Source: a bacterium
Lineage (GTDB): Bacteria > Sysuimicrobiota > Sysuimicrobiia > Sysuimicrobiales > Humicultoraceae
Direction of reading: 5' to 3'
DNA length: 64,000 bases
Assembly (NCBI GenBank): GCA_036004665.1
Contig: DASYRG010000029.1
Location: 12,753 to 76,752 of the forward strand
The notes beneath the pieces are model-generated. The model made no database searches. It saw only the letters and a program-made list of their open reading frames with translations, and was not told the origin of the DNA. The translations under genes and the position numbers were made by a program. Positions within the stretch are counted from its first letter, which is position 1, and each line of letters opens with the position of its first letter. Of the stretch, positions 2,680 to 48,123 are shown one piece after another.

Positions 2680-3807
2680 ATGACCGTCCCGCCCTGGTTC
2701 GTCGCCGGCGTCGTCGCGCTGGTCGTGACCATCGCCCTCACCCCTCCGCTGCGCCGTTTCGCCCGCCGCATCGGCGCGATCGACGTCCCCGGGGGGCGGC
2801 GCATCAACACGCGGCCGATGCCCCGACTGGGCGGGATCGCTATTTACGCGGGGTTCGTCTCGGCGCTGGCGGTGGCGATGGTGCTGACCCGGCCCGTGGA
2901 GTTGGTGCGCACGGCCGACGCGGTCTTCATTCAGATCACCCTCAGCCCGCGCACCGACCAGGCGCTGCTCGGGATCCTCCTCGGCGCGACCGTTCTCTTC
3001 CTGGCAGGGATCTGGGACGACGTGCGGGGGATGAATCCCGCGATCAAGTTCCTGCTGCAGGTCTCCGCGGCTGCCATCTTGATCCCCTTCGGGCTGACCA
3101 CCCGGTTTCTCACCCACCCGCTCACTGGAGCGGTCGTGTCATTGGGACGCTTCGGCGACCTCTTTACGGTGATCTGGGTCGTCGCCGTGGTGAACGCCAC
3201 CAATTTCATCGACGGCGTCGACGGGCTCGCCTCAGGGATCGCCGCCATCGCCGCCACGACGCTTTTCCTCACCGCCGGGGTGAAGGCGGACGTCATCTCC
3301 ATGGTGTTGGCCGCCTGTCTGGTAGGGAGCGCTCTGGGCTTCCTGCGCCACAATTTCAGCCCGGCGCGCATCATCATGGGCGACTCCGGCTCGATGTTCG
3401 TGGGATACGTCCTGGGCGGCATCTCGGTGATGGGACTCTACAAGTCCTTCGCCGCGCTCTCGCTGATCGTGCCTATCCTTGCCCTGGCCGTGCCGATCGT
3501 CGACACCGGCTACGCCATCGTGCGCCGCTTCCGCAACCACCGGCCGATCTATCTGCCCGACCGCGGACACCTGCACCACCGCCTCCTCGATCGCGGCCTC
3601 TCGCAGCGCCAGACCGTTCTGCTGCTCTACCTCGTGTCCGCCTTCTTCGGCGTGGGCGCCCTGGTCGTGGCCGGAGTCAACCGCAACGCCTCTCTGGTCA
3701 CCCTGGGCATCATCGCCGCTCTCCTGTATGTCGGCGCCCGCCGGATGAGGCTGTTCGACCGCAAGAACGGGGCACGCATGCCTGAGACGCCCGCGCCCCG
3801 GGCATAG
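2680..3807 (+). CDS. Polyprenyl-phosphate N-acetylhexosamine-1-phosphate transferase (MraY/WecA/TagO family, GT4)
   Basis: Multi-TM protein carrying the NATNFIDGVDGLASG signature of the MraY/WecA family. Followed directly by wecB. Confidence 0.8.
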   Translation: MTVPPWFVAGVVALVVTIALTPPLRRFARRIGAIDVPGGRRINTRPMPRLGGIAIYAGFVSALAVAMVLTRPVELVRTADAVFIQITLSPRTDQALLGILLGATVLFLAGIWDDVRGMNPAIKFLLQVSAAAILIPFGLTTRFLTHPLTGAVVSLGRFGDLFTVIWVVAVVNATNFIDGVDGLASGIAAIAATTLFLTAGVKADVISMVLAACLVGSALGFLRHNFSPARIIMGDSGSMFVGYVLGGISVMGLYKSFAALSLIVPILALAVPIVDTGYAIVRRFRNHRPIYLPDRGHLHHRLLDRGLSQRQTVLLLYLVSAFFGVGALVVAGVNRNASLVTLGIIAALLYVGARRMRLFDRKNGARMPETPAPRA

Positions 3808-3819
3808 CCACTCTTTAGC

Positions 3820-4965
3820 ATGGGCGAGCGCCTGGCGATCGCCACAATCTTTGGCACCCGGCCCGAAGCCGTGAAGATGGCGCCGGTCGTGGCGGCGCTT
3901 CGCGCCAGCGCCGATTTCCACCCCCTCGTCATCGTCACCGCGCAGCACCGGGAGATGCTCGACCAGGTCCTCTCCGTTTTTGACATCGTCCCCGACCGCG
4001 ACCTGGACATCATGTTGCCCGAGCAGTCCCTCGTCGACATCACCACGCGCGCCCTCAGCGGTCTCTATCCGGCGCTGGGAGAGCTGCGTCCGGCGATGGT
4101 GTTGGTGCAGGGGGACGCGCACACCACCTTCGTCGGCGCCCTGGCCGCCTACTACCACCGCATCCCAGTCGGGCACGTCGAGGCGGGGCTGCGCACCGCC
4201 GATAAGTATCAGCCGTTTCCCGAGGAACTGAATCGCCGCATGACCACGGTGCTCGCCGACCTGCACTTTGCCCCCACCCCGGCCGCCCGAGACAATCTCC
4301 TGCGGGAGGGCGTGCCGCGCAAGGCGGTCGTGGTCACGGGCAACACCGTCATCGACGCCCTCTCCGCCATTGTCGCCCGCGCGCCCGCGGCGCTGCCTCC
4401 TGCGGTGCCGCCGCTGGATGGGCGGCGCATGGTGCTCGTGACCACCCACCGGCGGGAGAACTGGGGGGAGCCGCTGCGCCAGATCTACCTCGGCCTGCTC
4501 GACCTGCTGGAGCGGTTTCCCGACGTCGAGCTGATCTTCTCCGTCCACCTCAACCCGGCGGTGCGCCGCGTCGTCTCGCAGGTCCTGGGGAGCCATCCCC
4601 GGGCTCATCTCATCGAGCCGCCGGAGTACGCCCCCTGGGTGCAGTTGATGAGCCGGGCCCACTTGATCCTCACCGACTCTGGGGGGATTCAGGAGGAGGC
4701 TCCCGCCCTGGGCAAACCGGTGCTGGTGCTCCGCCGCGTGACCGAACGCCCGGAGGGGGTGGAGGCGGGGACGGCACTCCTCGTCGGGACGGATCGGGAG
4801 CGCATCGTCGCCGAGGCCGGCGCGCTCCTGGCCGACCCGTGGCGCTACGCGGCGATGGCGCAGTCCCGCAATCCCTACGGCGATGGCCGCGCGGCGGAAC
4901 GAATCGTCGAGGCGCTCCGTATGTATTTTGGGAGGCGTATGGACCCGCCCGAGGAGTTCGCCTAG
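3820..4965 (+). CDS. wecB: UDP-N-acetylglucosamine 2-epimerase (non-hydrolysing)
   Basis: IFGTRPEAVKMAPVV...HVEAGLRT...LTDSGGIQEEAPALGKPVLVLR, a typical WecB/MnaA pattern. Confidence 0.85.
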   Translation: MGERLAIATIFGTRPEAVKMAPVVAALRASADFHPLVIVTAQHREMLDQVLSVFDIVPDRDLDIMLPEQSLVDITTRALSGLYPALGELRPAMVLVQGDAHTTFVGALAAYYHRIPVGHVEAGLRTADKYQPFPEELNRRMTTVLADLHFAPTPAARDNLLREGVPRKAVVVTGNTVIDALSAIVARAPAALPPAVPPLDGRRMVLVTTHRRENWGEPLRQIYLGLLDLLERFPDVELIFSVHLNPAVRRVVSQVLGSHPRAHLIEPPEYAPWVQLMSRAHLILTDSGGIQEEAPALGKPVLVLRRVTERPEGVEAGTALLVGTDRERIVAEAGALLADPWRYAAMAQSRNPYGDGRAAERIVEALRMYFGRRMDPPEEFA

Positions 4966-5034: not shown

Positions 5035-5337
5035 ATGCGCTTGACGGTACTAGTCATCCTGATCGTGCTGGCGGCGACGCCGGCGATTCCGGCCGCGCCG
5101 GTCGCCAGGGTGACCGAGGTCAAGGCCACTCTCACCGGCGAGGTGATGGAGCAAGGTCTCGTCCGGGTGGGGGATAGCGTGCGCGACGGGGATCCGCTGG
5201 TCTACGTGCGTACGCTGGTGGGCCGGGGTGTGGCCGCTCGCGCGCCCCACGACGGCATCATCGCCGAGGTCCTGGTCCGGGCCGGTGACGTGATTGCCAA
5301 GAAAGGCTCCGTCGTCGTCCGTCTCACCCCTCGGTAA
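5035..5337 (+). CDS. Small secreted protein with a biotinyl/lipoyl-like hybrid (barrel-sandwich) motif; function unknown
   Basis: N-terminal hydrophobic signal-like segment, then VKATLTGEVME...GDPLVYVRTLVGRGVAARAPHDGIIAEVLVRAGDVIAKKGSVVV. This resembles a lipoyl/biotinyl or membrane-fusion-protein hybrid motif but lacks the canonical modified Lys. Confidence 0.4.
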   Translation: MRLTVLVILIVLAATPAIPAAPVARVTEVKATLTGEVMEQGLVRVGDSVRDGDPLVYVRTLVGRGVAARAPHDGIIAEVLVRAGDVIAKKGSVVVRLTPR

Positions 5338-5504: not shown

Positions 5505-7325
5505 ATGAGTGTGACGCGTGTGGTTCGTGTCCTCGTAGTCGTCGGGCTGGCGCTCGCGGTGGTGTTGCCGCAGTTCGGATCCACCAGCGCGCAGGAGGGA
5601 CTTCCGCCGATCATGCCGCTGGGCGAGATCAGGCCGGGGATGCGCGGCGTGGGGCGTACCACCGTGAAAGGTCAGACCCCCAGCGAGTTCCAGTTCGAAG
5701 TGGTCAGCATCCTCAAAGGTGGCGGGGGGATCATCAACGTCAAGAACCTGATCCTCATCCGCACCTTCGGGCCCCTGATGGAGCAGACCGGGGGGACCGC
5801 CGCCGGCATGTCGGGCAGCCCGGTGTTCATTAACGGCAGGCTCGTCGGCGCCAACAGCGCCTCTTACCGCGGGCAGACGCGCAAGGACCTCTCCCTGGTC
5901 ACGCCGATCGTGGAGATGCTGCCGCTCCTTGACCTCGCCAGCGGAACGGCGCAGCGAGCTGTCCCCCGCCCTACGGTCTACGTCCCGACGGCGCCGCTGA
6001 CTCTCGATGGGACGGCGGTGCAGCGGATCGTCGTCGCGCAGAACGATGAAGAGGCCCTGGCATTGCATGCCACCCGGCCCGGCACCCTCGCCTTTCGCCC
6101 CAACTCACCGCTCGCCCGCGTCAGCGGCCTCAGTGCGCGGGCCTACTCGATCCTGCAGCGGGCGATGCGCAAGGGAGAAGACCGGTTGGTGCTGCAGAGC
6201 GGCGGCGGGCAGGTCGATCTGGCCAGTGTGCCGGTGCGCGGCGGTTCTCCCGTCGGGATTTTGATGGTGACGGGGGACGTCGAGTTCGGCGGGCTCTGTA
6301 CCGCCACGCTGCGGGTCGGCAACAAGGTGCTGATCTGCGGTCACTCCTGGGATCACCTCGGCTCGGTGGCGTATGGCCTCACCTCCGCCGAGGTGGTCAC
6401 GGTCGTGCGCACGCTGGAGACGCCGTTCCTCGAATTTAACCTCGGGCGGCTGATCGGGCAGATCGACGAAGACCGCGGCCAGGGCATCCGGGGCATCGTC
6501 GGGCAGTTCCCGCGGATGTTCGTCGTGCGCGTGCAGGTCACCGACGCGGACACCGGCAAGAGCGTGACCAAGGTGATGCAGGTGGTGCGCCGCGCCGATC
6601 TGGCGCGCCTCTTCACGCCGCTGATCGCCCTCACCGCCGCCGAGAGCGGCCGCGACCAGGAGCGCGGCGAAGGCACCGCCCGGGTGAAGATGACCGTCCG
6701 GGCCGGCGGATTGGACAGCGCCATCACCCGGGAGAACATCTTCTACAGTTCCCAGGACGTGGCGCTGGCCTCCATCCTGGACATCTCCACGGCGATGCAG
6801 TTCCTCTTCTTCAACCCCTTCGCGCAGCTTGATCCGTTCGACCTGCGCGTGGAGGTAACGATCAGCAAGAAGCGCGAGACCGCGGCGATCACCAACGTGG
6901 TGGCGCAGACCCGCGAGGTTTCCCCCGGGGACGTGATCCGCGTCCGCATCACGGTGCGGCCCTACCAGGAGGAAACGCTCGCCTCGCAGGTGATCAGCGT
7001 CCCCGTACCGCGCAACTTCCCCAAGGGCCCGGCCGTGCTTGTGGTGGGCTCGGCGGGACTGAACACGGTAGGGTTTTCGCTGGACGACTTCCTGGTGCGC
7101 GATCTGCTCAGCGAGCAGCCGCCCTTCCCCGGCGACAGCCTGGAGGAGGCGGTGGACATCTTCCAGGGCTTCGGCACCAACGACCAGATCCTGATCCAGC
7201 TGGTGCCATTCGGCCTGCCGACGACCGGTCCGGACTTCACGAACTTCGACGTCTTTGCCGGCCGGCTGCTGGGCACCGACTGGGTGATCCAGGGGGAGTT
7301 CCGGATTCCGATTCTCGTGCGCTGA
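5505..7325 (+). CDS. Secreted SpoIVB (MEROPS S55)-like serine peptidase domain protein with a large C-terminal extension
   Basis: Signal peptide (VVRVLVVVGLALAVVLPQFGSTSAQ). The segment EFQFEVVS...LMEQTGGTAAGMSGSPVFINGRLVGA closely resembles the catalytic-Ser region of SpoIVB (…[12 protein letters not shown]…). A later GILMVTG...LICGHSWDH resembles the SpoIVB His region. Start set at the ATG with RBS GAGAGAGGGG. Confidence 0.6.
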   Translation: MSVTRVVRVLVVVGLALAVVLPQFGSTSAQEGLPPIMPLGEIRPGMRGVGRTTVKGQTPSEFQFEVVSILKGGGGIINVKNLILIRTFGPLMEQTGGTAAGMSGSPVFINGRLVGANSASYRGQTRKDLSLVTPIVEMLPLLDLASGTAQRAVPRPTVYVPTAPLTLDGTAVQRIVVAQNDEEALALHATRPGTLAFRPNSPLARVSGLSARAYSILQRAMRKGEDRLVLQSGGGQVDLASVPVRGGSPVGILMVTGDVEFGGLCTATLRVGNKVLICGHSWDHLGSVAYGLTSAEVVTVVRTLETPFLEFNLGRLIGQIDEDRGQGIRGIVGQFPRMFVVRVQVTDADTGKSVTKVMQVVRRADLARLFTPLIALTAAESGRDQERGEGTARVKMTVRAGGLDSAITRENIFYSSQDVALASILDISTAMQFLFFNPFAQLDPFDLRVEVTISKKRETAAITNVVAQTREVSPGDVIRVRITVRPYQEETLASQVISVPVPRNFPKGPAVLVVGSAGLNTVGFSLDDFLVRDLLSEQPPFPGDSLEEAVDIFQGFGTNDQILIQLVPFGLPTTGPDFTNFDVFAGRLLGTDWVIQGEFRIPILVR

Positions 7326-7380
7326 AGGGAGCGATCCCGCGCCCCTCCCGGAGGGGAGGCGCGGACAGGAAGTCAAACGA

Positions 7381-7413
7381 AGGACGGGGGCGGCGACGAT
7401 CCCCGTCCTTTTG
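7381..7413 (+). terminator. Rho-independent terminator after the S55-like peptidase gene
   Basis: GGACGGGGG-cggcgacgat-CCCCGTCC followed by TTTT. Confidence 0.55.
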
Positions 7414-7475
7414 CATGTGCGGGAAAACCTTTGGACCGCTCGGGCCGTTACTGAGAGCGTCGGGTATATAAGGAA

Positions 7476-10400
7476 GTGCTGGTGTCCACGATGCGTGCAC
7501 GCCGGATCCTGCTGCTGCTCCTGATCGTCCTCGCCCTCGGACTCGGCGGAGGGGTCGCCGCCCTCTGGTTCTCTGGGACCCTGCACGGGCGCGTCCGTGA
7601 GCAGTTGGTGGCCTCCGCAGAAGCGAGCCTGGGCCGGGAGGTGGCGGTGGGGCGCCTGCGCGGGGATCCGCTGCGGGGCGTCGTCATCGACGACCTGGCG
7701 GTGGCGCGCACCGACCGGCTCAGCGAAGGCGCCATGATCACCGCAGAGCGGGCGGAGATCCGTTTCGACGCCCTGGCGTTGGGACGCGATCTCCTCACCG
7801 GCCGGGGCGTCCTGCCCAGCATCCGGCAGATCGTCCTCGTGTCGCCGACGCTGGCCCTCGAGGTCAGCCGGGAGGGGCGCTGGAACGTCGCTGACCTCCT
7901 TCGCCGCCAGCCCGCGGGCGGCGGCCCGAGCGTCTTTCGGCCTCTCGTGGAGATCCGAGCCGGCGCCGTCGATTTTTCTGACGCCTTCGGGCTGCGCCGT
8001 CCGTTCCTGGCGCGATTCAGCCAAGTCAACGGCACGGTCGATCTTCGCGCCTGGCCCCGCGTGCGTCTGGCGGCGGAGCTGGTCAGCCTGCGGGCGGATC
8101 GGGCCACGCCCCTGGTCGCCAGCGGAACCTATCTCGCCGGGATGGATGCGCTCGATCTCGCCGTCTCGGCGGAGCGCGCCCCCCTGGTCCAGTGGGGACC
8201 GTACTTCGTGCGCGTACCGGGGTTCGTGTTGGACGGCGGCTACGCAGATGCGGCCTTCCACGTGCTGCGGACGCGCTGGGGCGGCCGCCGGGCGCTGGAC
8301 TACCGGGGGACGCTGCGCCTCTATGACGCCGAGGCGCTTCTCCTGCCGCAACGGGCGCGGCTGCGGGACGCCCACGGCGTCATTGAAGTGGACAACCTGG
8401 GCTTGCGCACTGAGGCTCTCGCCCTGACGGTGGACGGATCGCCGCTGCGCCTGCGCGGGGAGATGATCAGCACGGCGCGGGGACGGCGCCTCGACCTGAC
8501 CGCCGTCTCGCAGGAGATGGATCTGACCACGCTGCGGCGGGTCCTCTTCCCGGGCTCCCAGCTCGCCCTCGTCGGGCGCACGGGGGGGGAGGTCCGCATC
8601 AGGGGCCCGATGCAGACGTTGACTGTGGAGGGCGCGCTCTACCACGCGCGCGGCGCCATCAACGCGCAGCCCTTCACCATTACCAGATCGGGCGTGACCG
8701 TCATTGGGAACCTGCTGGCCCTTGACGGCCTCTCGGCCACCGCCGGATCTGCGCGGGTCTCCGGTGAAGTCCGCCATCTCCTCGGCACCCCTGAACTGCT
8801 CGTCGCCGGCGAGGCGCACGATCTCAGCGCAGAGATCTGGCGGCGGGCTGGGATCCCCCTGAGCCTTCCCTTAGAGGGGCGGCTCGATGGGTCGGTGGCG
8901 CTCGGGCGGACCGGCGACAGCCTGATGGTCGAGGCGGCGCTGACCATGACCTCCGGACGAGCTGGCGGCCTTCGGGTGGACGGCATCCGCGCCGGGGGCT
9001 GGGTGGAGGACGGCGCGTTCTACTTCCCCTATCTCGTCGGCGCCCAGGGCACCTCCCAGGTCCACGCTGCGGGCGCCGTCGCCGAGTCGGGCCGGCTCGC
9101 CATGGACGTCGCCGGAACCGACCTGGATCTACGTCGGATCTCCGCGCTGGTCGGGCTGCGCCCCGCGATCTCCGGGCAGGCGGACGTGCGCGGGCGGCTG
9201 ACGGGTTCGCTGGCGGCCCCGGTCTTCGACGGTGACCTGGTCATGGGGAGGGGGAGCGCTGGGACGCTCGCGTTCGATGGGGCGGAGGGCCCTCTCCACC
9301 TCACCCGCCAGAGCGTATCAACCCCCGGTCTCCTGATCCGGGACGGCCCGGGGACCTACCGTCTCGCGGGGACGGCGCAGTGGGCCGCGGCCCACCCAGC
9401 CCTCGATCTGACTGTGGACGCCGAGGAGATCGCCGCCGCCGCACTGGCGCGTGACGCCGGGCTGGCCCTCGACCTGCGGGGGCGCCTCTCCGGCCGCCTG
9501 CACATCGGCGGCACACCGCGGCGGCCCAGCGTGACCGCGTCGCTGACGCTGCGTGAGGGGCGGCTGGAGGGGCAGCAGGTAGACGAGGCTACCGCCGCGT
9601 TCCGCTGGGTGGACGGCACCCTCCATCTCGACCGGGCGGAGGCGCGGGTCCGCGACTCGCTGATCCAGGCCAGTGGCACGGTACGCCGGGACGGGGAGAC
9701 GGAGATGACGATCTCGGCGCGGCAGTTCGATCTGCGGCATCTCACCATTCTGCCCCCTCAACTGCTGGCGGCCAGCGGAAAGATCGACCTCAACGGACGC
9801 GTCAGTGGGAAAGGGCTCAACCGCGTGGCAGGGGTGCTCTCCTCGAGTGACCTCACGCTCAACGGGCAGCGCTTCGACCAGGCGGAAGGTCTCGTCCGCT
9901 GGGCGCAGGGGCGGCTGCACCTGGAGCCGCTGACCCTGCGGCAGGGGCCGGGGGAATATACCATCACCGGCACGCTGGAGCTGCAGGGGCCGGTGAGGTT
10001 CGATCTGCAGGGCGAGGTGGCCGGCGGCCGCCTCTCCACGCTGCTGGCCCTGGGAGGTGTACGGCCGCCGTTTCCTCTGGACGGGCGGCTCGACGGGGTG
10101 GTCCGGGTCGAAGGCACCCCAGCGAGGCCCTCGGCCTCGCTGGATGCCCGGCTGTCGCAGGGACGCCTGGGCGACCACCCCATCGAGGAGGGGCAGGCGG
10201 TCCTCAGCGCGCGGGACGACGTCATCACCGTCGAACGGCTGCGGCTGCGTTCAGGATCGGGGGAGATCGCGGCGCAGGGGCGCGTTGCCCTCCGCGGCTC
10301 CAGCGCCCTCGAGGTGAGCGGCTCCAACCTCAACCTGGACCTGCTCCGTCCCCTCCTCGGCCTGCGGCGTCCGCTGCGCGGCACGCTGAGCTTCACCACG

Positions 10401-11867
10401 CAGTTCAGCGGGGCACTCAGCGATCCCGAGATCGGGCTGTCGCTGGAGCTGCGCGACGGCGGCGTCGAGGGGTTGACATTCGACTCGCTCGTGGCCAACG
10501 CGTTTTACCAGGACGGCCAGTTCCACATCGAGCAGGCGCTCCTCACTGAGGGCACCAACCGGGTCAAAGGGACGGGCACGATTCCCTTCAACCCGGCGCT
10601 GCGCTCGCTGGCGGAGACCCGGCCCATGCGCTTCGAGATCTCGCTGGTGGAAGCCAACCTCGGCCTGCTCACGCTGCTGACCCCCCAGGTGCAGGAGGCG
10701 TCGGGCCGGATGGAAGGGCAGGTCACCCTCAGCGGCACCCCGCGCGCTCCCGAGATGTCCGGGCGGCTGATGGTCCGCGGCGGCCGGATCAAACTGCGCA
10801 GCGTCGTCACGCCGCTGGAAGAGATTGCGGCCGACCTCATCTTCCGCGAGGACCGGCTGACGTTGGACAGCTTCAGCACGCGCATGGGCAGCGGGACGGT
10901 CTCGGCCACGGGCGCGGTGGCCGTGGCCGACTTCCGCCCCGCACGCATCGAGCGGTTGTCCGTGCGCGCGCGCGATGCGCGGCTGGAGGTCAAGCCGCTC
11001 TTTGCCGGCCAGGTCGATGCCGACCTCACCATCGCCGGGTCACTGCTGGACGCCGCCGCTCCCCCCGAGATCGCCGGAACCCTCACCCTCAAGCGGGGGG
11101 ATCTGGTGATCAGCGCGGCGCCCGGGGGGTCGGGGTGGCGGGGACCCAACTTCCGCCTCCACGACGTGCGCGTGCGCGGCGGGGAGGAACTGGCCGTCCA
11201 CCTCGGCCGGGTGCGCATCGACCTGCAAGAAGGGGAGGTCATCGCCGGCGGGACGCTGCGCCAGCCCACCCTCGATGGGGAGTGGGTGGCGGAGCGCGGG
11301 ACGATGACCGTCTTCGGTCAGACGTTCATCCTGCGGGAGGGGCGGGCGCGCTTCCTCCCCCAACTGGGGTTGACGCCCATTGTCTCGCTGGAAGCCGAGA
11401 CGCAGTTGGGCGCCACGCGGGTCTTCATCGAGGTGCATCAGGCGTTGCCGCACGAGATGGCGGACCGGATGATTCTGCGGTCCGATCCCCCGCTCAGCCG
11501 TGAGGAGATCGCCCAGCTCCTGGCGCAGCACTCCGGGCTGGCGCATCTCGCCGCCGGGGACGTCCAGTCGGCGCTGCGGGTCGAGCTCTCCCGCGCGCTC
11601 TTCGGCGAGATCGGGCAGACGGTGGCGCGCGCCCTGGGGCTGACCGAGTTCGTCATCCAGTACGATTTCGCTCAGCCGCTGCAGCTGCGCATCGGGCGGC
11701 TGCTCGTGCGCGATCTCTACCTGACCCTGACGACGGTCTTCGAGGCGCCCCGCACCCGCTTCGTCTGGGCGCTGGAATGGCGCTTCGCCCGCAACCTCAT
11801 GTTCACGCTGAGCCTGGACAATGTTGGGCGCTCCGACGCGCTGCTGCTCTATCAGATCCGGTTCTAA
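7476..11867 (+). CDS. tamB: Translocation and assembly module protein TamB (AsmA-like, DUF490 C-terminus), 1463 aa
   Basis: Single N-terminal TM segment, very long beta-rich body and the characteristic DUF490 C-terminus (...LQLRIGRLLVRDLYLTLTTVFEAPRTRFVWALEWRF...LLLYQIRF). Lies upstream of bamA as in diderm Firmicutes. Confidence 0.8.
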   Translation: MLVSTMRARRILLLLLIVLALGLGGGVAALWFSGTLHGRVREQLVASAEASLGREVAVGRLRGDPLRGVVIDDLAVARTDRLSEGAMITAERAEIRFDALALGRDLLTGRGVLPSIRQIVLVSPTLALEVSREGRWNVADLLRRQPAGGGPSVFRPLVEIRAGAVDFSDAFGLRRPFLARFSQVNGTVDLRAWPRVRLAAELVSLRADRATPLVASGTYLAGMDALDLAVSAERAPLVQWGPYFVRVPGFVLDGGYADAAFHVLRTRWGGRRALDYRGTLRLYDAEALLLPQRARLRDAHGVIEVDNLGLRTEALALTVDGSPLRLRGEMISTARGRRLDLTAVSQEMDLTTLRRVLFPGSQLALVGRTGGEVRIRGPMQTLTVEGALYHARGAINAQPFTITRSGVTVIGNLLALDGLSATAGSARVSGEVRHLLGTPELLVAGEAHDLSAEIWRRAGIPLSLPLEGRLDGSVALGRTGDSLMVEAALTMTSGRAGGLRVDGIRAGGWVEDGAFYFPYLVGAQGTSQVHAAGAVAESGRLAMDVAGTDLDLRRISALVGLRPAISGQADVRGRLTGSLAAPVFDGDLVMGRGSAGTLAFDGAEGPLHLTRQSVSTPGLLIRDGPGTYRLAGTAQWAAAHPALDLTVDAEEIAAAALARDAGLALDLRGRLSGRLHIGGTPRRPSVTASLTLREGRLEGQQVDEATAAFRWVDGTLHLDRAEARVRDSLIQASGTVRRDGETEMTISARQFDLRHLTILPPQLLAASGKIDLNGRVSGKGLNRVAGVLSSSDLTLNGQRFDQAEGLVRWAQGRLHLEPLTLRQGPGEYTITGTLELQGPVRFDLQGEVAGGRLSTLLALGGVRPPFPLDGRLDGVVRVEGTPARPSASLDARLSQGRLGDHPIEEGQAVLSARDDVITVERLRLRSGSGEIAAQGRVALRGSSALEVSGSNLNLDLLRPLLGLRRPLRGTLSFTTQFSGALSDPEIGLSLELRDGGVEGLTFDSLVANAFYQDGQFHIEQALLTEGTNRVKGTGTIPFNPALRSLAETRPMRFEISLVEANLGLLTLLTPQVQEASGRMEGQVTLSGTPRAPEMSGRLMVRGGRIKLRSVVTPLEEIAADLIFREDRLTLDSFSTRMGSGTVSATGAVAVADFRPARIERLSVRARDARLEVKPLFAGQVDADLTIAGSLLDAAAPPEIAGTLTLKRGDLVISAAPGGSGWRGPNFRLHDVRVRGGEELAVHLGRVRIDLQEGEVIAGGTLRQPTLDGEWVAERGTMTVFGQTFILREGRARFLPQLGLTPIVSLEAETQLGATRVFIEVHQALPHEMADRMILRSDPPLSREEIAQLLAQHSGLAHLAAGDVQSALRVELSRALFGEIGQTVARALGLTEFVIQYDFAQPLQLRIGRLLVRDLYLTLTTVFEAPRTRFVWALEWRFARNLMFTLSLDNVGRSDALLLYQIRF

Positions 11868-11980: not shown

Positions 11981-12607
11981 ATGTTCGCCGACTACCTGCG
12001 TGAACTCCAGCGGGTGCGCCTGCTCACCCCCGTAGAGGAAGCGGAGTGCTGGCGGCGCTTCCGCGGCGGCGGCGACGCCGAGAGTCGCCTGCGCCTGATC
12101 GAAGCCTACCAGCCCCTCGTCTTCAAGCTGGCGATGCAGCTGCAGCTCCCCCGGCCGAGGGTGATGGACTTCATCCAGGAAGGCACCGTCGGCCTGATCG
12201 AAGCGGTGGAGCGGTTCGATCCCACGCGTCGGGTCCGCTTCAGCACCTTCGCTGCCTACCGCATCCGGGGGCGAATGCTCAACGCCCTGGGGCGCCGCGG
12301 TCCGGAGCTCTCACTGGACCAACTCGTCGCCGACGAACTGGCGGCCGCCCTGGGCGACCTCGAGGCGGAGACGGCGCTGGCGCGTGTGGAGGACCGCGTC
12401 CTCGTCTCCCAGGTGGGGGCGGCGATCGCCGAGCTGCCTGAGCGGGAACGGGAGATTCTGCGAGCCTTCCTGATGCGCCGGGAGCCCCGCGCGGTCGCCC
12501 GGGGGCTGCGGATCAGCCTCTCCCATTTCTACCGGTTGCAGAACCAGGCGATCGCCCGTGTGCGCGCCATGTTGCGGGGGGCCGCCCCGGGTACCGGATC
12601 GCCCTGA
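11981..12607 (+). CDS. Sigma-70 family RNA polymerase sigma factor (group 3/4-like)
   Basis: Region 2 (LVFKLAMQL...DFIQEGTVGLIEAVERFDP...FSTFAAYRIRG) and a region 4 helix-turn-helix (ISLSHFYRLQNQAIARVRA). RBS GAGGTGAGG. Confidence 0.75.
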   Translation: MFADYLRELQRVRLLTPVEEAECWRRFRGGGDAESRLRLIEAYQPLVFKLAMQLQLPRPRVMDFIQEGTVGLIEAVERFDPTRRVRFSTFAAYRIRGRMLNALGRRGPELSLDQLVADELAAALGDLEAETALARVEDRVLVSQVGAAIAELPEREREILRAFLMRREPRAVARGLRISLSHFYRLQNQAIARVRAMLRGAAPGTGSP

Positions 12608-12687: not shown

Positions 12688-13311
12688 GTGGAGGAGGGAG
12701 TCCTGGTGTCGACTGACGTCAAGACCGCAAGGCGGCGCGATCAGCTCAGCCACCACATCGGGTTTGCCGAACGCTGGCTGACCCGGGCCAAAGGGGAGGT
12801 CGCCCGCGGTGATCTGGGCCGGGGCCAGCTCACGCTGCTGCTGGCCGAGGCGGAGATCCATCATGCCCGCGCGGCGGAGGGGGCGCCCGCCACGGCGCCG
12901 CGTCCGCACCCGGTGACGATGATCGTGGGCACGACCCTCCTGGCCGCCGCGCTCCTGTCCGGACTTGCCGCGGCGCTACCGCGGAGCACCGTGACTTCCG
13001 TGCTACCCTCCTCCCCTCCCATGATCCGGTTCAAGCAGCCGGTCGGCAGCACCCTTGCCCTGATCCCGATGGTCGCGGCGCCTCAGACCCCGACGCAGAT
13101 GCTCTCTGCTCCGGCGCGCGGGCCCGCCCTCGCTGGCGCCCCTCGAGCAGCGCCGCGGCGCTCGCCGGTCCGAACAGCCGTGCCGTCCCGGCCCGTGTCC
13201 ATTCCCGCGCCGCCGCTACCGGCCGCGGCGCCCCTGGTCCTCGTCTCTGACGGCGACTTGATCGACCTGGTCCTCGCAGCGGAGCGCTCGCTGCGCGGGG
13301 AGAAGCGGTAG
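12688..13311 (+). CDS. Single-pass membrane protein; possible anti-sigma factor
   Basis: Immediately downstream of the sigma factor. N-terminal cytoplasmic segment, one TM helix (MIVGTTLLAAALLSGLAAAL) and a Pro/Ala-rich extracytoplasmic tail. No recognisable catalytic motifs. Confidence 0.35.
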   Translation: MEEGVLVSTDVKTARRRDQLSHHIGFAERWLTRAKGEVARGDLGRGQLTLLLAEAEIHHARAAEGAPATAPRPHPVTMIVGTTLLAAALLSGLAAALPRSTVTSVLPSSPPMIRFKQPVGSTLALIPMVAAPQTPTQMLSAPARGPALAGAPRAAPRRSPVRTAVPSRPVSIPAPPLPAAAPLVLVSDGDLIDLVLAAERSLRGEKR

Positions 13312-13326: not shown

Positions 13327-15300
13327 ATGAAGATCGTCCTCCGCCGGCGCCGCTGGACCTGTGCCTGCACGTGGCTGGTCGTCATCCTTGCCCTCGCCCT
13401 CGGCACCGCTCAGCCGCCGCTCTTCGCTCAGACGCCGACTCCCACTCCGACGTCCTCGCCCACGCCGGCGCCCACTCCCCTGCCCGCACCGACCGCGACG
13501 CCGGTACCGGCTCCAGCCGCGCCCACCGCATCGCCGGCACCGGGAGCCACGCCGACCACCGCCCCGAGCCCTACCCCGACCGCGCGACCCACCCCGACGG
13601 CGACCCCGGCCGCGCCGCGTCCAGCAGCGACCGCCACGCCGGCGCAGCGTGTGATCGCCGTCGAGGTCGTCGGCAACAAGCAGATCGCCCTCGAGCGCAT
13701 CACCGAGGTGATCACAACGAAGGTGGGGGAGGTCCTCGATCCGGAGAAGGTCCGGCGGGATCTCGAGGCCATCCTGCAGCTGGGGTGGTTCGCGGACGTG
13801 TCGATCCGGGTGGAAACCGAACCGACGGGCGTGCGCGTGGTCTTTCTCATCGTGGAGAACCCCGTGATCAGCACGGTGGCAGTCGAGGGCAACACCGTCA
13901 TTGCGACGGAGGCGCTCATCGGCGCGCTGAAGGTCCCCCTTGGCCAGGTGTTGAACGCCCGCCAGCTCCGCGAGGGCATCAGGGCGGTCGAGCAGCTCTA
14001 TGAGAGCCGGGGCTACGTGCTGGCCCGGGTCACCGACGCCACGGTGGAGCCGGCCGGGGATGGCCGGCTGGTCATCCGGATCGCCGAAGGACGCGTGGAG
14101 GACATCGTCTTCCGCGGGCTCACCAAGACGAGGCCGCGCGTGGCCCAACGCTACCTGCGGATGAAGCGCGGCGACGTCTTCAACGTCGGGGCGATGAACG
14201 CCGATTTGCAGCGACTCTTCGACAGCGGACTCTTCGAGAACGTCCAGGCGCGCCCCCGCCCGGGCTCGGGACCGGACACCGTGGTCATCGAGATCGAGGT
14301 CAAAGAGGCCCAGACCGGGCGCATCGGCTTCGGCATCGGGTACAGCAGCGCCAGAGGGCTGATCGGACAGATCGAGTACGGCGAGCGGAACTGGCGCGGG
14401 ACGGGACAGTCCATCTCGCTGCGCATCGAGCGCGGGATCACCCGCGGGACCCTGGGGATCTCCAGCAAGCTCAACTTCCAGCTGAACTACCGGGAACCGT
14501 TCCTCGACGACCGGCCCACGACACTGGAGATCGGTCTCTTCGGGCTGTCGTCCATCCAATCGGAGGTGATCAGCAGGGAGACGACGTCACGCTTCGAGCT
14601 GGAGCGCACCGGCAGCTTCCTCGAGGTGGGCAGGCCGCTCGATGCGGTGACGACGCTCTCGCTGCGCGTGCGCTCGGAGCTGGCGGTGATCACGGCGCTG
14701 CCCCTCGATTCCAACAGCGAGGATTGTCCCTGCCCCCTCCCCAGCCTCTACAGCCCGGGCCGGACGATCTCGCTGCTGACCTCCGCCGTCAGGGAGACGC
14801 GGGACAGCCGGATCAACCCCACCCGCGGGAGCCGCCAGCTGCTGTCGCTGGAGGTGGGGTTGCCGGTGCTGGGTGGAGAGTTCTCCTTCCAGAAATACTT
14901 CGGCGAGTACATCCAGTACTTCTCCGTGGGGGCGGGCCACGTGGCCGCCCGCGCGCAGTTGGGGCTGGGCAGCGGCTTCATCCCCTTCCAGGAGTGGTAC
15001 GTCCTGGGCGGACCGACGACGCTGCGCGGGGCGCAGGCCGGCCAGTTCCGCGGCACCAGTATGGCGATGGTGAACGTGGAGTACCGCCATCCCCTCGGCG
15101 GCATCGCCTCGTTCCTCAAGGAATTCCAAGGCATCGTGTTCGTCGACGTGGGGGCGGCGCCGATCAGCGGAGGAGGCAACTTCTCAACCAGTTATGGCAT
15201 CGGCACCTCGTTCAACTCGCCCCTCGGCGTGATCCGGTTCGATCTGGCCTTCGGGCCGGGGGGAACCCAGACGTGGATCAACCTGGGCCAGCCCTTCTAA
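13327..15300 (+). CDS. bamA: Outer membrane protein assembly factor BamA (Omp85) with N-terminal Pro/Thr-rich linker
   Basis: Signal peptide, about 75 aa of PT-rich low complexity, POTRA-like repeats (VIAVEVVGNKQIALERI...VSIRVETEPTGVRVVFLIVENPVI...) and a C-terminal beta-barrel ending ...INLGQPF. Confidence 0.85.
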   Translation: MKIVLRRRRWTCACTWLVVILALALGTAQPPLFAQTPTPTPTSSPTPAPTPLPAPTATPVPAPAAPTASPAPGATPTTAPSPTPTARPTPTATPAAPRPAATATPAQRVIAVEVVGNKQIALERITEVITTKVGEVLDPEKVRRDLEAILQLGWFADVSIRVETEPTGVRVVFLIVENPVISTVAVEGNTVIATEALIGALKVPLGQVLNARQLREGIRAVEQLYESRGYVLARVTDATVEPAGDGRLVIRIAEGRVEDIVFRGLTKTRPRVAQRYLRMKRGDVFNVGAMNADLQRLFDSGLFENVQARPRPGSGPDTVVIEIEVKEAQTGRIGFGIGYSSARGLIGQIEYGERNWRGTGQSISLRIERGITRGTLGISSKLNFQLNYREPFLDDRPTTLEIGLFGLSSIQSEVISRETTSRFELERTGSFLEVGRPLDAVTTLSLRVRSELAVITALPLDSNSEDCPCPLPSLYSPGRTISLLTSAVRETRDSRINPTRGSRQLLSLEVGLPVLGGEFSFQKYFGEYIQYFSVGAGHVAARAQLGLGSGFIPFQEWYVLGGPTTLRGAQAGQFRGTSMAMVNVEYRHPLGGIASFLKEFQGIVFVDVGAAPISGGGNFSTSYGIGTSFNSPLGVIRFDLAFGPGGTQTWINLGQPF

Positions 15301-16714: not shown

Positions 16715-17200
16715 TTGAAGGTCCTGCGCACCCGCATCCGGCAGAACCCACGCAAGGCCGGCCTCGTCGCCGTGGGCGGCATCATCGCGGTCCTCGTCGT
16801 CGTCGCGGCGGTACTCCTGGCCAGCCAGGGCGGAGCGCCGGTGTTCGGTCAGAGCTTCACCATCGGCTTCGTTGACATGCAGCGCGCCGTGGACGCGCAC
16901 CCGCGCAAGGCCGCCAGCGAGCGGGCCCTCCAGGAGTTCTTCCAGGCGAAGCAGCGGGAGTTCACGACGCGCAGCAAAGGGCTGAGCGTCGAGCAGCGTC
17001 AGTTGCTCGACCGGGAACTGCAGCAGCAGGTCGTCGCGAAGCGTCAGGAGTTGCTGGGCGGCATTGAGAAGGAGCTCCGCACCGCCGTCGAGGATGTCGC
17101 CCGCGCCCAGGGCGTCTCCATCGTCCTGGAGCGCGCCGTGGTGCTCTTCGGCGGCGTGGACCTGACCGACCAGGTCATCACGAAGGTGACCGGCAAGTAG
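16715..17200 (+). CDS. skp: OmpH/Skp-family periplasmic chaperone
   Basis: 161 aa: signal anchor, coiled-coil body, Skp-like pattern (FVDMQRAVDAHPRKAASERALQEF...GVSIVLERAVVLFGGVDLTDQVI). Confidence 0.7.
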   Translation: MKVLRTRIRQNPRKAGLVAVGGIIAVLVVVAAVLLASQGGAPVFGQSFTIGFVDMQRAVDAHPRKAASERALQEFFQAKQREFTTRSKGLSVEQRQLLDRELQQQVVAKRQELLGGIEKELRTAVEDVARAQGVSIVLERAVVLFGGVDLTDQVITKVTGK

Positions 17201-17204
17201 GGAC

Positions 17205-18308
17205 ATGACCCGGGCCGGCGGACTCCTCCTGCTGATGGCCCTGGCCGTCAGCGGCTGTGGGGGACGGGACTCGACCGCGGTTCCCGCACCCAGCCTCACG
17301 CCGGCGCTGACCCGCATCGCCGTCGTTGACCTGGATGCCCTCGTGCGGGCCCACCGCAGCTGGCCGGAGGTCGACGCCATCGCCAAGAAACTCACGGCGG
17401 TCGAGGCCGCGCTGGCCGCGCCGCCGGCGATCCCGCCGATCCTCCAACGCGAGGTGCAGGCTCGGCTGCGGGCCCAGTCCCGCCGGCTGGAGCGCGAATT
17501 CCAGGCGGAGATCGCCGCCCTGAAGAAGCGGCAGACCGAACGGATCGTCCTCTACGCCGCTCGCGTCCGCGTGGAGCAGCAGGCGGCGCTGGCGAAGCTG
17601 CGGGCGCAGGTCGACGCGGAACTCCAGCGGGTCATCGCCGAGCGCGTCCAGGCGGTGCGCGAGGAGCTGCGCCGGTATGAACTGCAGGTCTTCGATGAGT
17701 ACCGCTTCTCCATCGCCAACCTGCGGCTGAAGGCGGATGTCGTGGGCGTCGCCACCGAGGAGGAGCAGCGCCTGCTGATCGAAGAGCTGGATCGCGTGCT
17801 CCAGGAACGCGACGCCAAGGTGCGCGCGCGGGCGGAGGTGCTCGACGCCGTCGTGGTGGACTTCCGGCGGGCCCGCGAGGCAGAGGCCAACGCCACGCTC
17901 GCACGCGCCCGCGTTGCCGCCGAGGCCCTGACGAAACGCCTCATCCTCGCAAAGGAGCGGGAGATCCAGGCGGAAACCACCCGGATCGGCAAAGCCAGGG
18001 AGGCGGAATTCCGGCGCCGGTTATCCGCGTTTCGCCGCCGCCTCACAGGGATCGAGGAAAGCCAGATGGGCACCGCTCAGCGCCGCTTTGTCGAGGGGCT
18101 GCGCCAGCGCGAGCAGCAGCTGCTGGCGCAACGGCAGGCCCTCACCGAGCAGCGGCTGCGGCTGGAGGACACTATCCTGGCCGACGTGAAGATCGAGGTG
18201 GCGGGGATCGCGGCCGCCCGGGGGCTGGACGTCGTGCTCACCCGGCTGATCGCCAGGGTGAGCGGTGAGGACATCACGCAGGAGGTCCTGGCCCGCCTGA
18301 AGCGGTAG
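17205..18308 (+). CDS. OmpH/Skp-like lipoprotein, long coiled-coil paralogue (367 aa)
   Basis: Lipoprotein signal (LLLLMALAVSGCGG), extended Arg/Glu-rich coiled coil and a Skp-like C-terminus (GLDVVLTRLIARVSGEDITQEVLARL). Confidence 0.55.
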   Translation: MTRAGGLLLLMALAVSGCGGRDSTAVPAPSLTPALTRIAVVDLDALVRAHRSWPEVDAIAKKLTAVEAALAAPPAIPPILQREVQARLRAQSRRLEREFQAEIAALKKRQTERIVLYAARVRVEQQAALAKLRAQVDAELQRVIAERVQAVREELRRYELQVFDEYRFSIANLRLKADVVGVATEEEQRLLIEELDRVLQERDAKVRARAEVLDAVVVDFRRAREAEANATLARARVAAEALTKRLILAKEREIQAETTRIGKAREAEFRRRLSAFRRRLTGIEESQMGTAQRRFVEGLRQREQQLLAQRQALTEQRLRLEDTILADVKIEVAGIAAARGLDVVLTRLIARVSGEDITQEVLARLKR

Positions 18309-18309
18309 C

Positions 18310-18738
18310 ATGCGCAGCCGTCGCCCCGTCTCGGCACTCATCCTGGTGGTCGTCTGCTCCTTCGCTCTGTCCGCGTGCGGCTCCGCCGCCCTGGCTCTTG
18401 TGGACAGCGATCGCGTGCTCAACGAGAGCGTGCGGGCGCTCTCCTTCCAGAGAGAACTCGACGCCCGCGAGAAGGCGATGGCCTTCGACCTTCAATTGCT
18501 CAGCAGCCAGCTGCCGGCCGCCGACCTGGAGGCGCGCCGCAATCAATACCTCAGAGAACTGCAGCAGATGAAGAGCGATTTCGAAGCGCGCTTGAATAAG
18601 GAGATCCGCGAGATGGTCATCCAGATCGTCCGGGAACGCGGCCTCCGCGCCGCCGTCATCGTGAAGGAACCGGTGCTCTACTCGGTGCCGGGCCGCACCG
18701 TGGACATCACCGACGAGGTGATCGCCAAACTCAAGTGA
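18310..18738 (+). CDS. OmpH/Skp-like lipoprotein, short paralogue (142 aa)
   Basis: Lipobox-type signal (FALSACGS), then ...[27 protein letters not shown]...[25 protein letters not shown]. Confidence 0.55.
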
Positions 18739-19811
18739 TCCCCATCCGCCTCGGCGAGCTGGCGACCCGCCTCGGCGGAACCGTAGCGGGCGACCCCATG
18801 GTCGAGGTGACGGGGGTGGGGACGCCGGAGCACGCGGCCCCGGGAGATATCGTCCTGGCCGCAGATGCCGGCGCGCTCGAGCGGGCGGAGGCCGGAAGGG
18901 CGGGGGCGGGAGAGGCGGCGGCTGTGCTGATCCCCGAGGACCTGACCCCGCGGCGGCTGCCGGCGATCCGCTCGGGCAACGTCCGCCTGGCCTTTGCGCG
19001 TCTCCTCGAGCACTTCTCCCCGCCGCCCTCGCGCGCCCCGGGCGTCCATTCCAGCGCGGTCATCAGCCCCGACGCCCTGGTGGCGCCCGACGCCAGCGTC
19101 GGCCCGCTGGTCGTACTCGGGGCGCGGGTCCGCGTGGGCGCGCGCTCGACCGTGCAGGCGGCCGTGGTGGTCGGAGACGACGTCAGCATCGGCGCCGACT
19201 GCCTGATCTATCCCCACGTCACCATCCGCGAGGACACGATCGTGGGCGACCGCGTCATCCTCCATCCGGGCGTGGTCTTGGGCAGCGATGGGTTTGGGTA
19301 TGCTCGAGGGGAGTCGGGGCCGGTGAAGATCCCCCATCTCGGGCGGGTGGTCATCGAGGACGACGTGGAAATCGGGGCGAACACGACGATCGATCGGGGC
19401 ACGCTGGGTGAGACACGCGTGGGGCGGGCCACCAAAGTCGACAACCTGGTGCAGATCGCACACAACGTGCGCATCGGCCGCGCCGTGCTGATTGTGGGGC
19501 AGGTGGGAATCGCCGGCAGCGTCACCATCGGCGACGGCGCCACCCTGGCGGGGCAGGCGGGCGTGCCCGATCACCTCACCGTCGGGCCGGGGGCGACGCT
19601 CCTTGCCCGAGCGGTGCCGACGAAGGACGTGCCGGCCGGAGCCGTACTCTCGGGATTCCCCGCCCGACCGCACCGGGAAGAACTGCGTCTGCAGGCGCTG
19701 CTGCGACGGCTCCCGGACCTGGTCGCGCGGAGGGACGACTCCCCGCGCCGGAGACGACGCACCGCAAAGAAGAAGGATGGCCCCGAGCGGGCGGGGAAGG
19801 GGCAGCGGTGA
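18735..19811 (+). CDS. lpxD: UDP-3-O-(3-hydroxyacyl)glucosamine N-acyltransferase
   Basis: Left-handed beta-helix hexapeptide repeats plus a GFGY...[24 protein letters not shown] core. Basic Arg/Lys-rich C-terminal tail. GTGA overlap with the preceding skp paralogue. Confidence 0.85.
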
Positions 19812-44015: not shown

Positions 44016-44178
44016 CCGTTCCAGAAGGGGGATTGGGCGGCCAGACGCGAATCCAGAAACGAATAAGGACACACTTACGAAATCGTGACAAACCTATGAT
44101 ACGGCTCTGCGGCAAGGAATGTGCACGGTCGGCCATCCGCGCTGCGGCGGTGGCCGCGAAACCAGCAAGGAGGGATCC

Positions 44179-45921: not shown

Positions 45922-45966
45922 AGGCGCAGGGGGGCGGGCGGGCGCCCGCCCCTTGGGCCGATCCGC

Positions 45967-46932
45967 ATGCTCCTCCATATCGCCCGCCGCCTGATCCAGC
46001 TCATCCCACTGCTCTTTGGCGTCACCCTGGTCTCGTTCGTGGTGATCCAGCTCTCCCCAGGGGACTTCCTGGCAGAGATGCGCCTCAACCCGGTGGTGGA
46101 CAGCGCCACGGTTGAAGCGATGCGCCGCAACTTCGGGTTGGACCAGCCGATGCACGTGCAGTACTTCAAGTGGCTTTGGAACCTGCTGCGGCTGGACTTC
46201 GGCTACTCGTTCGCCTACCACGTGCCGGTGATGTGGCTGATCGGCTCCCGCCTGCTCAATTCCGTGGTCCTGAACATCGCCGCCCTCATCCTCGCTTGGG
46301 TCGTGGCCATCCCGATCGGCATCCACGCCGCGACGAAACAGTACTCCTGGTCAGACAACTCCCTCTCGATGACCGCTTACCTGGGCATCTCCACGCCTAC
46401 GTTCTTTTCCGCTCTGCTCCTGTTGCTGCTCGCCTTCAAAACGGGATGGCTGCCGATCGGCGGGATGACCAGCCTGGACTACGATTTCCTGCCCTGGTAC
46501 GGCAAGATCCTCGACGTCGGCCGGCACCTCATCATCCCCGCCTCGGTCCTGGGGTTCGGCGCCGCCGCCGGGCTGATGCGGCAGATGCGCGGGAACCTGC
46601 TGGAGGTGCTGCGGCAGGATTACGTGCGCACCGCGCGCTCGAAAGGGTTGGCCGAACGTCCCGTCATCTACCGCCACGCCGTGCGCAACGCCATCAACCC
46701 CTTGATCACGATCTTCGGCTTCGAGCTGGGCGGGCTGCTGGGCGGAGCGGTGGTGATCGAAATCGTCACCGGCTGGCCGGGCGTCGGGCGGCTGATCTTC
46801 GACGCCATCGTGCAGAAGGATCTCTACGTAGTGATGGGGAGTTTGCTCATCGGCAGCGTGACCCTGGTGGTGGGCAACCTGGTCGCCGATATCCTGCTGG
46901 CCGTCGCCGATCCGCGCATCCGCTATGACTAG
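45967..46932 (+). CDS. ABC transporter permease (DppB/OppB-like) #1
   Basis: IARRLIQLIPLLFGVTLVSFVVIQL... N-terminus and an EAA-like loop. Confidence 0.85.
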   Translation: MLLHIARRLIQLIPLLFGVTLVSFVVIQLSPGDFLAEMRLNPVVDSATVEAMRRNFGLDQPMHVQYFKWLWNLLRLDFGYSFAYHVPVMWLIGSRLLNSVVLNIAALILAWVVAIPIGIHAATKQYSWSDNSLSMTAYLGISTPTFFSALLLLLLAFKTGWLPIGGMTSLDYDFLPWYGKILDVGRHLIIPASVLGFGAAAGLMRQMRGNLLEVLRQDYVRTARSKGLAERPVIYRHAVRNAINPLITIFGFELGGLLGGAVVIEIVTGWPGVGRLIFDAIVQKDLYVVMGSLLIGSVTLVVGNLVADILLAVADPRIRYD

Positions 46933-48067: not shown

Positions 48068-48123
48068 GGGGGTCTCCAACAGTGAACTTTTGTATGCTTT
48101 GGAACGTTTTAGGAAAGCAGGAA

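Follow-up and report, generated by a model that had tools for sequence, protein, structure and literature searches.

A SpoIVB-like S55 peptidase with apparently permuted barrels, encoded next to tamB in an outer-membrane gene cluster of Candidatus Sysuimicrobiota

The catalytic residues of clan PA proteases are classically ordered His-Asp-Ser/Cys, and members such as HtrA, DegP and DegS serve in the periplasm as envelope quality-control or signalling proteases. For SpoIVB, the S55 peptidase of B. subtilis, a crystal structure published in 2025 placed Asp363 ~24 Å from His236, and the catalytic role of this Asp was questioned (PMC12502668). An S55-like protein of Veillonella parvula, Vpar_0521, was found in 2017 in whole-cell, outer-membrane (OM) and surface fractions of this Firmicute, which is described as non-sporulating. 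It is conserved in diderm Firmicutes, was described only by its "N-terminus SpoIVB" domain, with neither a downstream His barrel nor a permutation, and its role was left as that of a conserved OM unknown (PMC5491611). In Acetonema longum, only two proteins came down with BamA in a co-immunoprecipitation, and one of them has an S55 domain (PMC13018214). Here we describe a related gene at positions 5505..7325 (+ strand, as are all its parts below) of a 64,000-nucleotide stretch of contig DASYRG010000029.1 ("the window"; GC content ~70%), whose nearest genome matches are Candidatus Sysuimicrobiota (ex CSP1-3, often binned as Armatimonadota; within Bacillati/Terrabacteria). The whole open reading frame (ORF) encodes 606 amino acids (aa). 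With a probability of roughly 0.7, we take its product to be an exported, probably active serine endopeptidase of the SpoIVB lineage (MEROPS S55) with circularly permuted barrels, which probably acts on the periplasmic apparatus of OM biogenesis and lipid transport.

A first-pass annotation of the window had proposed that the mature N-terminus of the protein matches the catalytic-Ser block of SpoIVB. In SpoIVB this block, with Ser378, is located close to the C-terminus, past His236, and the match is borne out by several profile methods. Residues 51-116 match Pfam Peptidase_S55 (PF05580) with 32.6 bits (E 1e-7, cutoff 25) over positions 126-189 of the 210 in the profile. In distant members of the family the match reaches 32-56 bits and covers profile positions ~106-210; in 10/10 of those scanned it is the N-terminus that falls on the C-terminal half of the profile. 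With phmmer, residues 41-118 match residues 223-297 of the solved SpoIVB chain, 9lnf_A. With hhalign, residues 35-140 align with SpoIVB 313-413 in a Bacillus SpoIVB alignment (probability 97.4%), and residues 33-150 align with SpoIVB 311-423 in a profile built from 136 diverse representatives of canonical SpoIVB, collected by exhaustive search (probability 99%, E 9.3e-18); over both comparisons the Ser half ranges from 97 to 99% in probability and from 1e-11 to 9e-18 in E. The Ser block itself comprises residues 61-116, and the alignment extends beyond GMSGSP to span the entire C-terminal barrel and the terminal helix (...TPIVEMLP versus ...HIEWML). In both predicted models the corresponding barrel, residues 33-142 (5601..5930), consists of six strands and a helix. 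At the level of sequence, homology of the Ser half to the C-terminal barrel of SpoIVB is thus confirmed, and the similarity is no short chance match.

Downstream of the Ser barrel, a variable linker subdomain (residues 143-246; 5931..6242) would join the former C-terminus to the former N-terminus. It is followed by the His barrel (residues 247-335; 6243..6509), the homolog of the N-terminal barrel of SpoIVB. This barrel holds the His block GILMVTG...LICGHSWDH (residues 251-283) that had been recognized in the first pass; the distance from Ser103 to His280 is 177 residues and not about 160. When residues 236-350 alone are compared with the diverse SpoIVB profile, they align with SpoIVB 214-303 (P 2.8e-5, probability 74%). 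The alignment pairs His280 with the catalytic His236, GGxCTxT with GIGTMT, IGxIDxDRGxGIxG with IGDINRNSPFGIFG, and GIRG with GIFG. Its score of 38.5 compares with 14.8±2.9 (maximum 26.2) in 150 shuffles of the query columns, 0/150 of which reach 38.5, and with 22.1 for a reversed query used as control. In addition, the His block of a member from Synergistota (L060) weakly matches positions 14-35 of the Pfam S55 profile (E 0.07).

The mapping of the two halves is non-collinear, residues 33-142 falling on SpoIVB 311-423 and residues 247-335 on SpoIVB 214-303. Thus, the order Ser barrel, linker, His barrel is the reverse of that in SpoIVB. Only ~5 residues separate the signal peptide from the start of the Ser barrel, and the spacer is equally short in all the relatives compared, including those of Negativicutes, Halanaerobiaceae, Synergistota, Fimbriimonadaceae and Phycisphaerae with as little as 26-31% identity. 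Three features of a Peptidase S55 domain are present, namely a score above the Pfam threshold, a Ser in a GMSGSP loop, and a His in a G-x-GT-x-T...(A/F)-x-GH block; the collinear order of that domain, His before Ser, is absent. These comparisons support a circular permutation of the two catalytic half-domains relative to SpoIVB. Judged by its names in databases ("SpoIVB peptidase S55 domain-containing protein" and the like), the protein might instead be taken for a normal SpoIVB ortholog that acts at the sporulation checkpoint and has its motifs in collinear order. This is extremely improbable. The protein scores 35.3 bits with the SpoIVB equivalog model TIGR02860 (cutoff 305.25), so far below the cutoff that it is not SpoIVB itself. 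Its Ser block, ~5 residues past the signal peptide, falls on the C-terminal half of the profile, it contains no PDZ domain, the residues D363, T393 and H394, invariant in SpoIVB, are not kept, and the hosts include non-sporulating lineages (V. parvula, PMC5491611). Within the 64-kb window there are no sporulation genes, and the sigma factor encoded there scores far below the SigK and SigE cutoffs.

Structure prediction points in the same direction as the profile comparisons. A second AlphaFold model, covering residues 31-345 and built from a two-clade multiple sequence alignment (MSA) of 58 sequences, is compact, with a predicted local distance difference test score (pLDDT) of 85.4 and a predicted template modelling score (pTM) of 0.87. 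In the first, full-length model, pLDDT is 50-70 in the His region and ~90 in the C-terminal module. Residues 247-335 are predicted to form six strands. In a Foldseek search of the PDB with the 31-345 model, nearly all matches are clan PA proteases of the chymotrypsin fold, among them Rv3671c, DegP, Deg1, HtrA1, DegS, kallikrein, MamO, SGPB and 3C. Local alignments of 110-138 columns, which superpose a single barrel only, reach 3.5-6 Å with probabilities near 1, while alignments of ~300 columns have root-mean-square deviations (RMSD) of 16-24 Å. That one barrel fits at a time, and never both, is expected when an aligner that follows sequence order meets a circular permutant. Sequence and model together support residues 31-345 as a complete, barrel-swapped S55 protease domain.

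Some observations weigh against this reading. A shallow, Bacillus-only SpoIVB profile gives the same His-half alignment with a P of only 0.06, and a hidden Markov model (HMM) of the His region does not retrieve SpoIVB among PDB sequences; the significance of the His half therefore hinges on the deeper profile. The Foldseek E-values are weak throughout (0.017 or higher) despite the probabilities near 1. The SpoIVB crystal structure 9lnf is absent from the Foldseek top 50 of either model. The failed retrieval and the P of 0.06, together with the single S55 stretch found by Pfam in the protein and the low pLDDT of the His region in the first model, would suit a protein in which only the Ser barrel is S55-derived. 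The His region would then be an unrelated beta-rich domain of chance likeness, and the whole a non-catalytic binding or scaffold protein, or a pseudo-protease. We consider this unlikely, because the diverse-profile alignment scores ~8 standard deviations above the shuffles and pairs the two catalytic His residues, because the invariance of His280, Asp323 and GMSGSP across phyla is hard to account for without catalysis, and because the model from the deeper MSA is one compact, confident unit that matches clan PA proteases. The circular permutation of the S55 fold suggested in the first pass is thus supported by the swapped hhalign mapping, the shuffle null and the 31-345 model.

Conservation identifies candidate catalytic residues in both barrels. 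In 36 family sequences, which come from at least five phylum-level groups and diverge down to ~28% identity, the invariant non-glycine residues are M102, S103, S105, P106, H280 and D323; D258 and R324 are each present in 35/36. The GMSGSP motif (residues 101-106; 5805..5822), in which Ser103 (codon 5811-5813) aligns with the SpoIVB nucleophile Ser378, is found in 36/36 members of the permuted family and in 137/137 canonical SpoIVB sequences. Residues that are invariant or nearly so in the latter include H236, S378, D363, T393, H394 and N290, and the equivalents of D363, T393 and H394 are variable in the permuted family. The candidate codons of the His barrel are those of His280 (6342-6344), Asp258 (6276-6278) and Asp323 (6471-6473). 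The residue order is thus Ser103 ... (Asp258) His280 ... Asp323, which differs from the His, Asp, Ser order of clan PA. In chymotrypsin, Asp102 lies 45 residues past His57. The spacing from His280 to Asp323, 43 residues, is close to this value, and together with its invariance it makes Asp323 the candidate third residue. Asp323 sits exactly at the aligned position of the invariant Asn290 of SpoIVB, a difference that bears on the question of the third catalytic residue of SpoIVB raised by the 2025 crystal structure. The pattern suggests that the permuted family has kept a classical Ser-His-Asp triad, Ser103/His280/Asp323.

The start of the gene is consistent with an exported product. A Shine-Dalgarno-like sequence, GAGAGAGGGG, lies a few bases 5' of the ATG at 5505, and full-length homologs share this start position. 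Residues 1-30 (MSVTRVVRVLVVVGLALAVVLPQFGSTSAQ; 5505..5594) read as a Sec-type signal peptide that lacks a lipobox Cys, and the segment is a helix at residues 3-24 in the predicted model. In all relatives checked, too, a signal peptide comes first and the Ser barrel next. In the mechanism that we propose, the signal peptide would likely export the protein to the periplasm, where the leading Ser barrel would supply the nucleophile, Ser103, from its GMSGSP loop. After the linker of ~100 aa, the His barrel would supply His280 as general base, and Asp323 would complete the triad. The targets would be the TamB, Mla and BamA machinery, perhaps with a small lipoyl-fold protein encoded upstream as partner. 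An active Ser/His/Asp endopeptidase exported to the periplasm is likely, and its active-site geometry, catalytic activity, export, substrate and physiological role are given here as we infer them.

The first-pass annotation had also assigned the protein an extra region of ~450 aa. Such a stretch is present but is not all extra, ~90 aa being the His barrel, ~100 aa the linker and ~270 aa a C-terminal module. The length of the linker varies in the family from 66 aa (Negativicutes) to 129 aa, and only a beta-(S/A)G-alpha-beta core of it is common to all. Its beta-beta-beta-alpha-beta-beta-alpha-beta topology looked PDZ-like, and a PDZ relic would suit duplication and truncation of an ancestor with the order PDZ-N-C. 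This origin is rejected on the comparison of the linker with the SpoIVB PDZ domain, which shows no similarity (hhalign P 0.39), and on its shrinkage to 66 aa in Negativicutes. The same P and the lack of a Pfam match to PDZ in the protein agree with the earlier statement that no PDZ domain is evident. The C-terminal module (residues 336-606; 6510..7322) is rich in beta-sandwich structure and can be aligned across phyla. Neither a profile search of PDB sequences nor Pfam scans of individual members gave a significant match to it; the best sub-significant ones, each from one member, are to protocadherin (E 0.012) and MG2 (E 0.028). A relationship to complement/MG domains was considered and discarded, since the Foldseek matches of the full-length model have an RMSD >20 Å and probabilities <0.1 and are thus meaningless.

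By sequence, the permuted S55-like family is very large, with >550 close clusters and 7,383 significant clusters when the profile of distant members is used. Its members are named "SpoIVB peptidase S55 domain-containing protein" or "hypothetical" in databases. With tblastn, residues ~5-570 match genes of Negativicutes, Halanaerobiaceae and Synergistota at 28-31% identity. The tags of the V. parvula locus run from Vpar_0521 to 0525 (TolC), 0526 (TamB) and 0527 (BamA) (PMC5491611), an order that agrees with that of a Megasphaera locus and so marks Vpar_0521 as an ortholog. The literature searched contains no later mention of Vpar_0521 and no description of the barrel permutation. For natural circular permutants of the chymotrypsin fold in general, our incomplete coverage of the literature gave nothing relevant, which is not proof of novelty. 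The family had already been flagged as an interesting conserved unknown; added here are its second barrel, the permuted arrangement, a candidate triad, a small partner gene that is conserved, and a distribution that extends past Firmicutes. Two side observations concern individual metagenome-assembled genomes (MAGs). A second contig of Ca. Sysuimicrobium calidum (L050) carries a divergent paralog (36% identity) in the same MAG as L044, without GT4, epimerase or TamB neighbours. Negativicutes-like members also occur in two MAGs of nominally monoderm Clostridia, labelled Oscillospiraceae (L063) and Acutalibacteraceae (L078); either these MAGs are mis-binned or the diderm-only pattern has exceptions.

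The window is a lipopolysaccharide (LPS) outer-membrane cluster of the Terrabacteria type, as described for diderm Firmicutes (Antunes 2016, PMC5007114). Upstream of the S55-like gene, a GT4 glycosyltransferase (WecA/TagO-like; + strand, from 2680) and a UDP-GlcNAc 2-epimerase (+ strand, from 3820) together span 2680-4965. They are followed by a gene for a small secreted protein of 100 aa with a lipoyl/barrel-sandwich fold (5035..5337, + strand; Pfam Biotin_lipoyl 26.6 bits, HlyD_3), which has neither an MKM biotinylation motif nor a Lys motif for biotin or lipoyl. Essentially every Sysuimicrobiota-type locus has this gene directly 5' of the S55-like one. A homologous ORF of ~100-130 aa occupies the equivalent position in all Negativicutes loci examined (e.g., 7512-7904 in L055), and the small proteins of the two groups have in common the motif VG..V.EGD.L..V.TL.G...AARA..G.V..V.V..G. 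In the loci of Synergistota, Fimbriimonadaceae and Phycisphaerae, the S55-like gene lacks this small upstream neighbour. The two genes may form a conserved two-gene module.

Directly 3' of the S55-like gene, as the first-pass annotation had noted, lies tamB (7476..11867, + strand). It encodes a TamB/AsmA-like protein of 1463 aa (Pfam TamB 116 bits), with sub-threshold matches to DUF748 (44.1 bits, cutoff 50) and YhdP (36.9 bits, cutoff 46). Next come a gene for a sigma-70 family sigma factor of 208 aa (11981..12607, + strand; Pfam Sigma70_r2; TIGR02937 83.8 bits) and orf207 (12688..13311, + strand). The product of orf207 is a single-pass membrane protein, as read from its sequence, with a Pro-rich C-terminal half and no family match in the profile scans. 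bamA (Omp85 plus POTRA; 13327..15300, + strand) matches Pfam Omp85 and POTRA and scores 231 bits with TIGR03303, below the cutoff of 297.15.

The block from the GT4 gene to orf207, including the order S55-tamB, is kept in ~50 Sysuimicrobiota-type loci. In a subset of these, the S55-like gene and tamB are set apart by ~1.8-2.2 kb of extra DNA that holds one more gene (L006, L021, L025-L028, L032, L034-L036, L039, L041, L043, L046, L047 and L066). Elsewhere the gene order is MreB - S55 - TamB - BamA in Halanaerobiaceae; MreB - small lipoyl-fold protein - S55 - MlaE - MlaF - MlaD - TolC - TamB in Negativicutes; and S55 - MlaE, followed by MlaF and/or MlaD, in Synergistota. The gene neighbourhood is thus conserved across four phylum-level lineages. 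From this and the two proteomic observations described above, we infer that the protein acts on or with the TamB/Mla/BamA machinery. The earlier view of the protein as a possible periplasmic protease at the OM-biogenesis locus is supported as an interpretation. Three points reduce the strength of this functional assignment. A terminator-like element at 7326..7420 (+ strand), consisting of two stable GC-rich hairpins, the second followed by UUUU (minimum free energy -49.8 kcal/mol, z -3.25), lies between the S55-like gene and tamB, so that co-transcription is doubtful and the link between them is one of conserved position; a simple terminator scan missed this element because it requires at least 5 T. 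OM genes do not adjoin the S55-like gene in the UBP15-like, Fimbriimonadaceae-type, Phycisphaerae and GD18 Armatimonadota loci examined. Finally, the BamA-associated protein of A. longum (F7NM31) may belong to the permuted family or may be a true SpoIVB. In a UBP15-like MAG (L070, 9746-12148) and a Phycisphaerae MAG (L080, 9996-12626), a gene for a beta-propeller protein (Reg_prop) of 800-876 aa is found 3' of the S55-like gene, and this protein may be an alternative partner in those lineages.

The sigma-70 gene and orf207 keep their position between tamB and bamA in most Sysuimicrobiota-type loci. The orf207 product may be an anti-sigma factor, and the pair may be dedicated to the OM cluster. 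The S55-like protein could then be a site-1 signalling protease that cleaves the periplasmic part of the orf207 product and so frees the adjacent sigma factor to control bamA-skp expression, much as SpoIVB acting on SpoIVFA and DegS acting on RseA trigger regulated intramembrane proteolysis (PMC6581720). Such a role is improbable as the general one, given that the Negativicutes, Halanaerobiaceae and Synergistota loci examined, like the L044 locus of Sysuimicrobium calidum, have the protease family without the pair; orf207 also has no recognizable anti-sigma domain. At best it would be a lineage-specific use of the protease, and it is a weaker alternative to the reading that we favour.

The remainder of the window is in keeping with its assignment. 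Three Skp/OmpH genes (16715-18735) and lpxD (from 18735) are followed by an ORF of 601 aa with coding-like GC content at third codon positions (19808-21613, + strand), for which no Pfam or NCBIfam match was found, and by lpxC (from 21610), fabZ (from 22482) and lpxA (from 23021). Further downstream are genes for an LptA-like protein (from 26519), LptB (from 27363), LptF/G (from 28079), an ArnT-like glycosyltransferase (from 29086), a TonB-dependent receptor (from 32607) and an OmpM-like SLH-domain protein of 496 aa (36529-38019, + strand). The GT4 enzyme, the epimerase and the SLH protein together suggest that a wall polymer containing N-acetylmannosamine (ManNAc) is made, to which an OM tether of the SLH type could be anchored. 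At 44000-58200, consecutive + strand genes have a distinctly lower GC content, 64-65%, compared with ~70% for the window.

Two-membraned Terrabacteria reportedly have no Lol pathway, and the components of their beta-barrel assembly machinery (BAM) are described as non-canonical. Few genes of unknown role are conserved in the OM cluster ancestral to diderm Firmicutes and related phyla, and the S55-like gene is among them. Reading its product as a complete and probably active protease offers a concrete hypothesis on the control of OM biogenesis without the proteobacterial accessory factors, and one that is genetically tractable in V. parvula. A further-reaching view, which we hold only tentatively and think may well be wrong, is that the family represents an ancient protease in the periplasm of two-membraned Terrabacteria, where it assists the TamB/Mla/BamA machinery or serves in its quality control. 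The family would also be the first natural barrel swap in the chymotrypsin fold, with the canonical Asp retained where SpoIVB has Asn. If so, SpoIVB and the permuted family would be two descendants of one intermembrane-space protease, linking endospore signalling to the ancestral diderm envelope of Firmicutes. One of the best-studied enzyme folds would have gained a clean natural circular permutation, and the appearance of only "half" an S55 domain in thousands of database proteins would be accounted for.

Comparison with known systems places the protein between several groups. HtrA/DegP/DegS and the other periplasmic proteases of clan PA provide the best structural matches of the two models (DegP, Deg1, HtrA1, DegS, Rv3671c and MucD) and have the two-barrel chymotrypsin fold, but they keep the canonical His-Asp-Ser order, carry C-terminal PDZ domains, and are only 12-22% identical over one barrel. 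BepA and the other BAM accessory proteases of Proteobacteria may be functional analogs, as periplasmic proteases tied to BamA and OM biogenesis; the analogy derives from gene context and from the co-immunoprecipitation of an S55 protein with BamA in A. longum (PMC13018214). The fold of BepA is unrelated, that of an M48 metalloprotease with tetratricopeptide (TPR) repeats. SpoIVB (PDB 9lnf) has a homologous Ser barrel, with an identical GMSGSP loop followed by a G(K/R)hhGA strand, and a homologous His barrel with G-x-GT-x-T...GH. Like the protein described here, it is secreted into an intermembrane compartment, the forespore intermembrane space for SpoIVB and, by prediction, the periplasm in our case. 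Unlike SpoIVB, the Sysuimicrobiota protein has its barrels in reversed order, an extra linker of ~100 aa and a C-terminal module of ~270 aa. It has a predicted cleavable signal peptide, whereas the PDZ domain and the N-terminal transmembrane anchor are found only in SpoIVB. The invariant Asn290 is replaced by an invariant Asp323, D363, T393 and H394 are not kept, and the gene has no linkage to sporulation. The nearest counterparts are Vpar_0521 and the other S55 proteins of diderm Firmicutes. Those of Negativicutes differ in their shorter linker (66 aa) and in an extra charged C-terminal tail, which has been annotated as DUF1090 (PMC5491611). They resemble the Sysuimicrobiota protein over nearly the full length (~28-30% identity), place the Ser barrel first, and are encoded downstream of a small lipoyl-fold gene in an OM cluster, beside lipid-transport genes: mlaEFD-tolC-tamB-bamA in Negativicutes, and tamB directly in the window.

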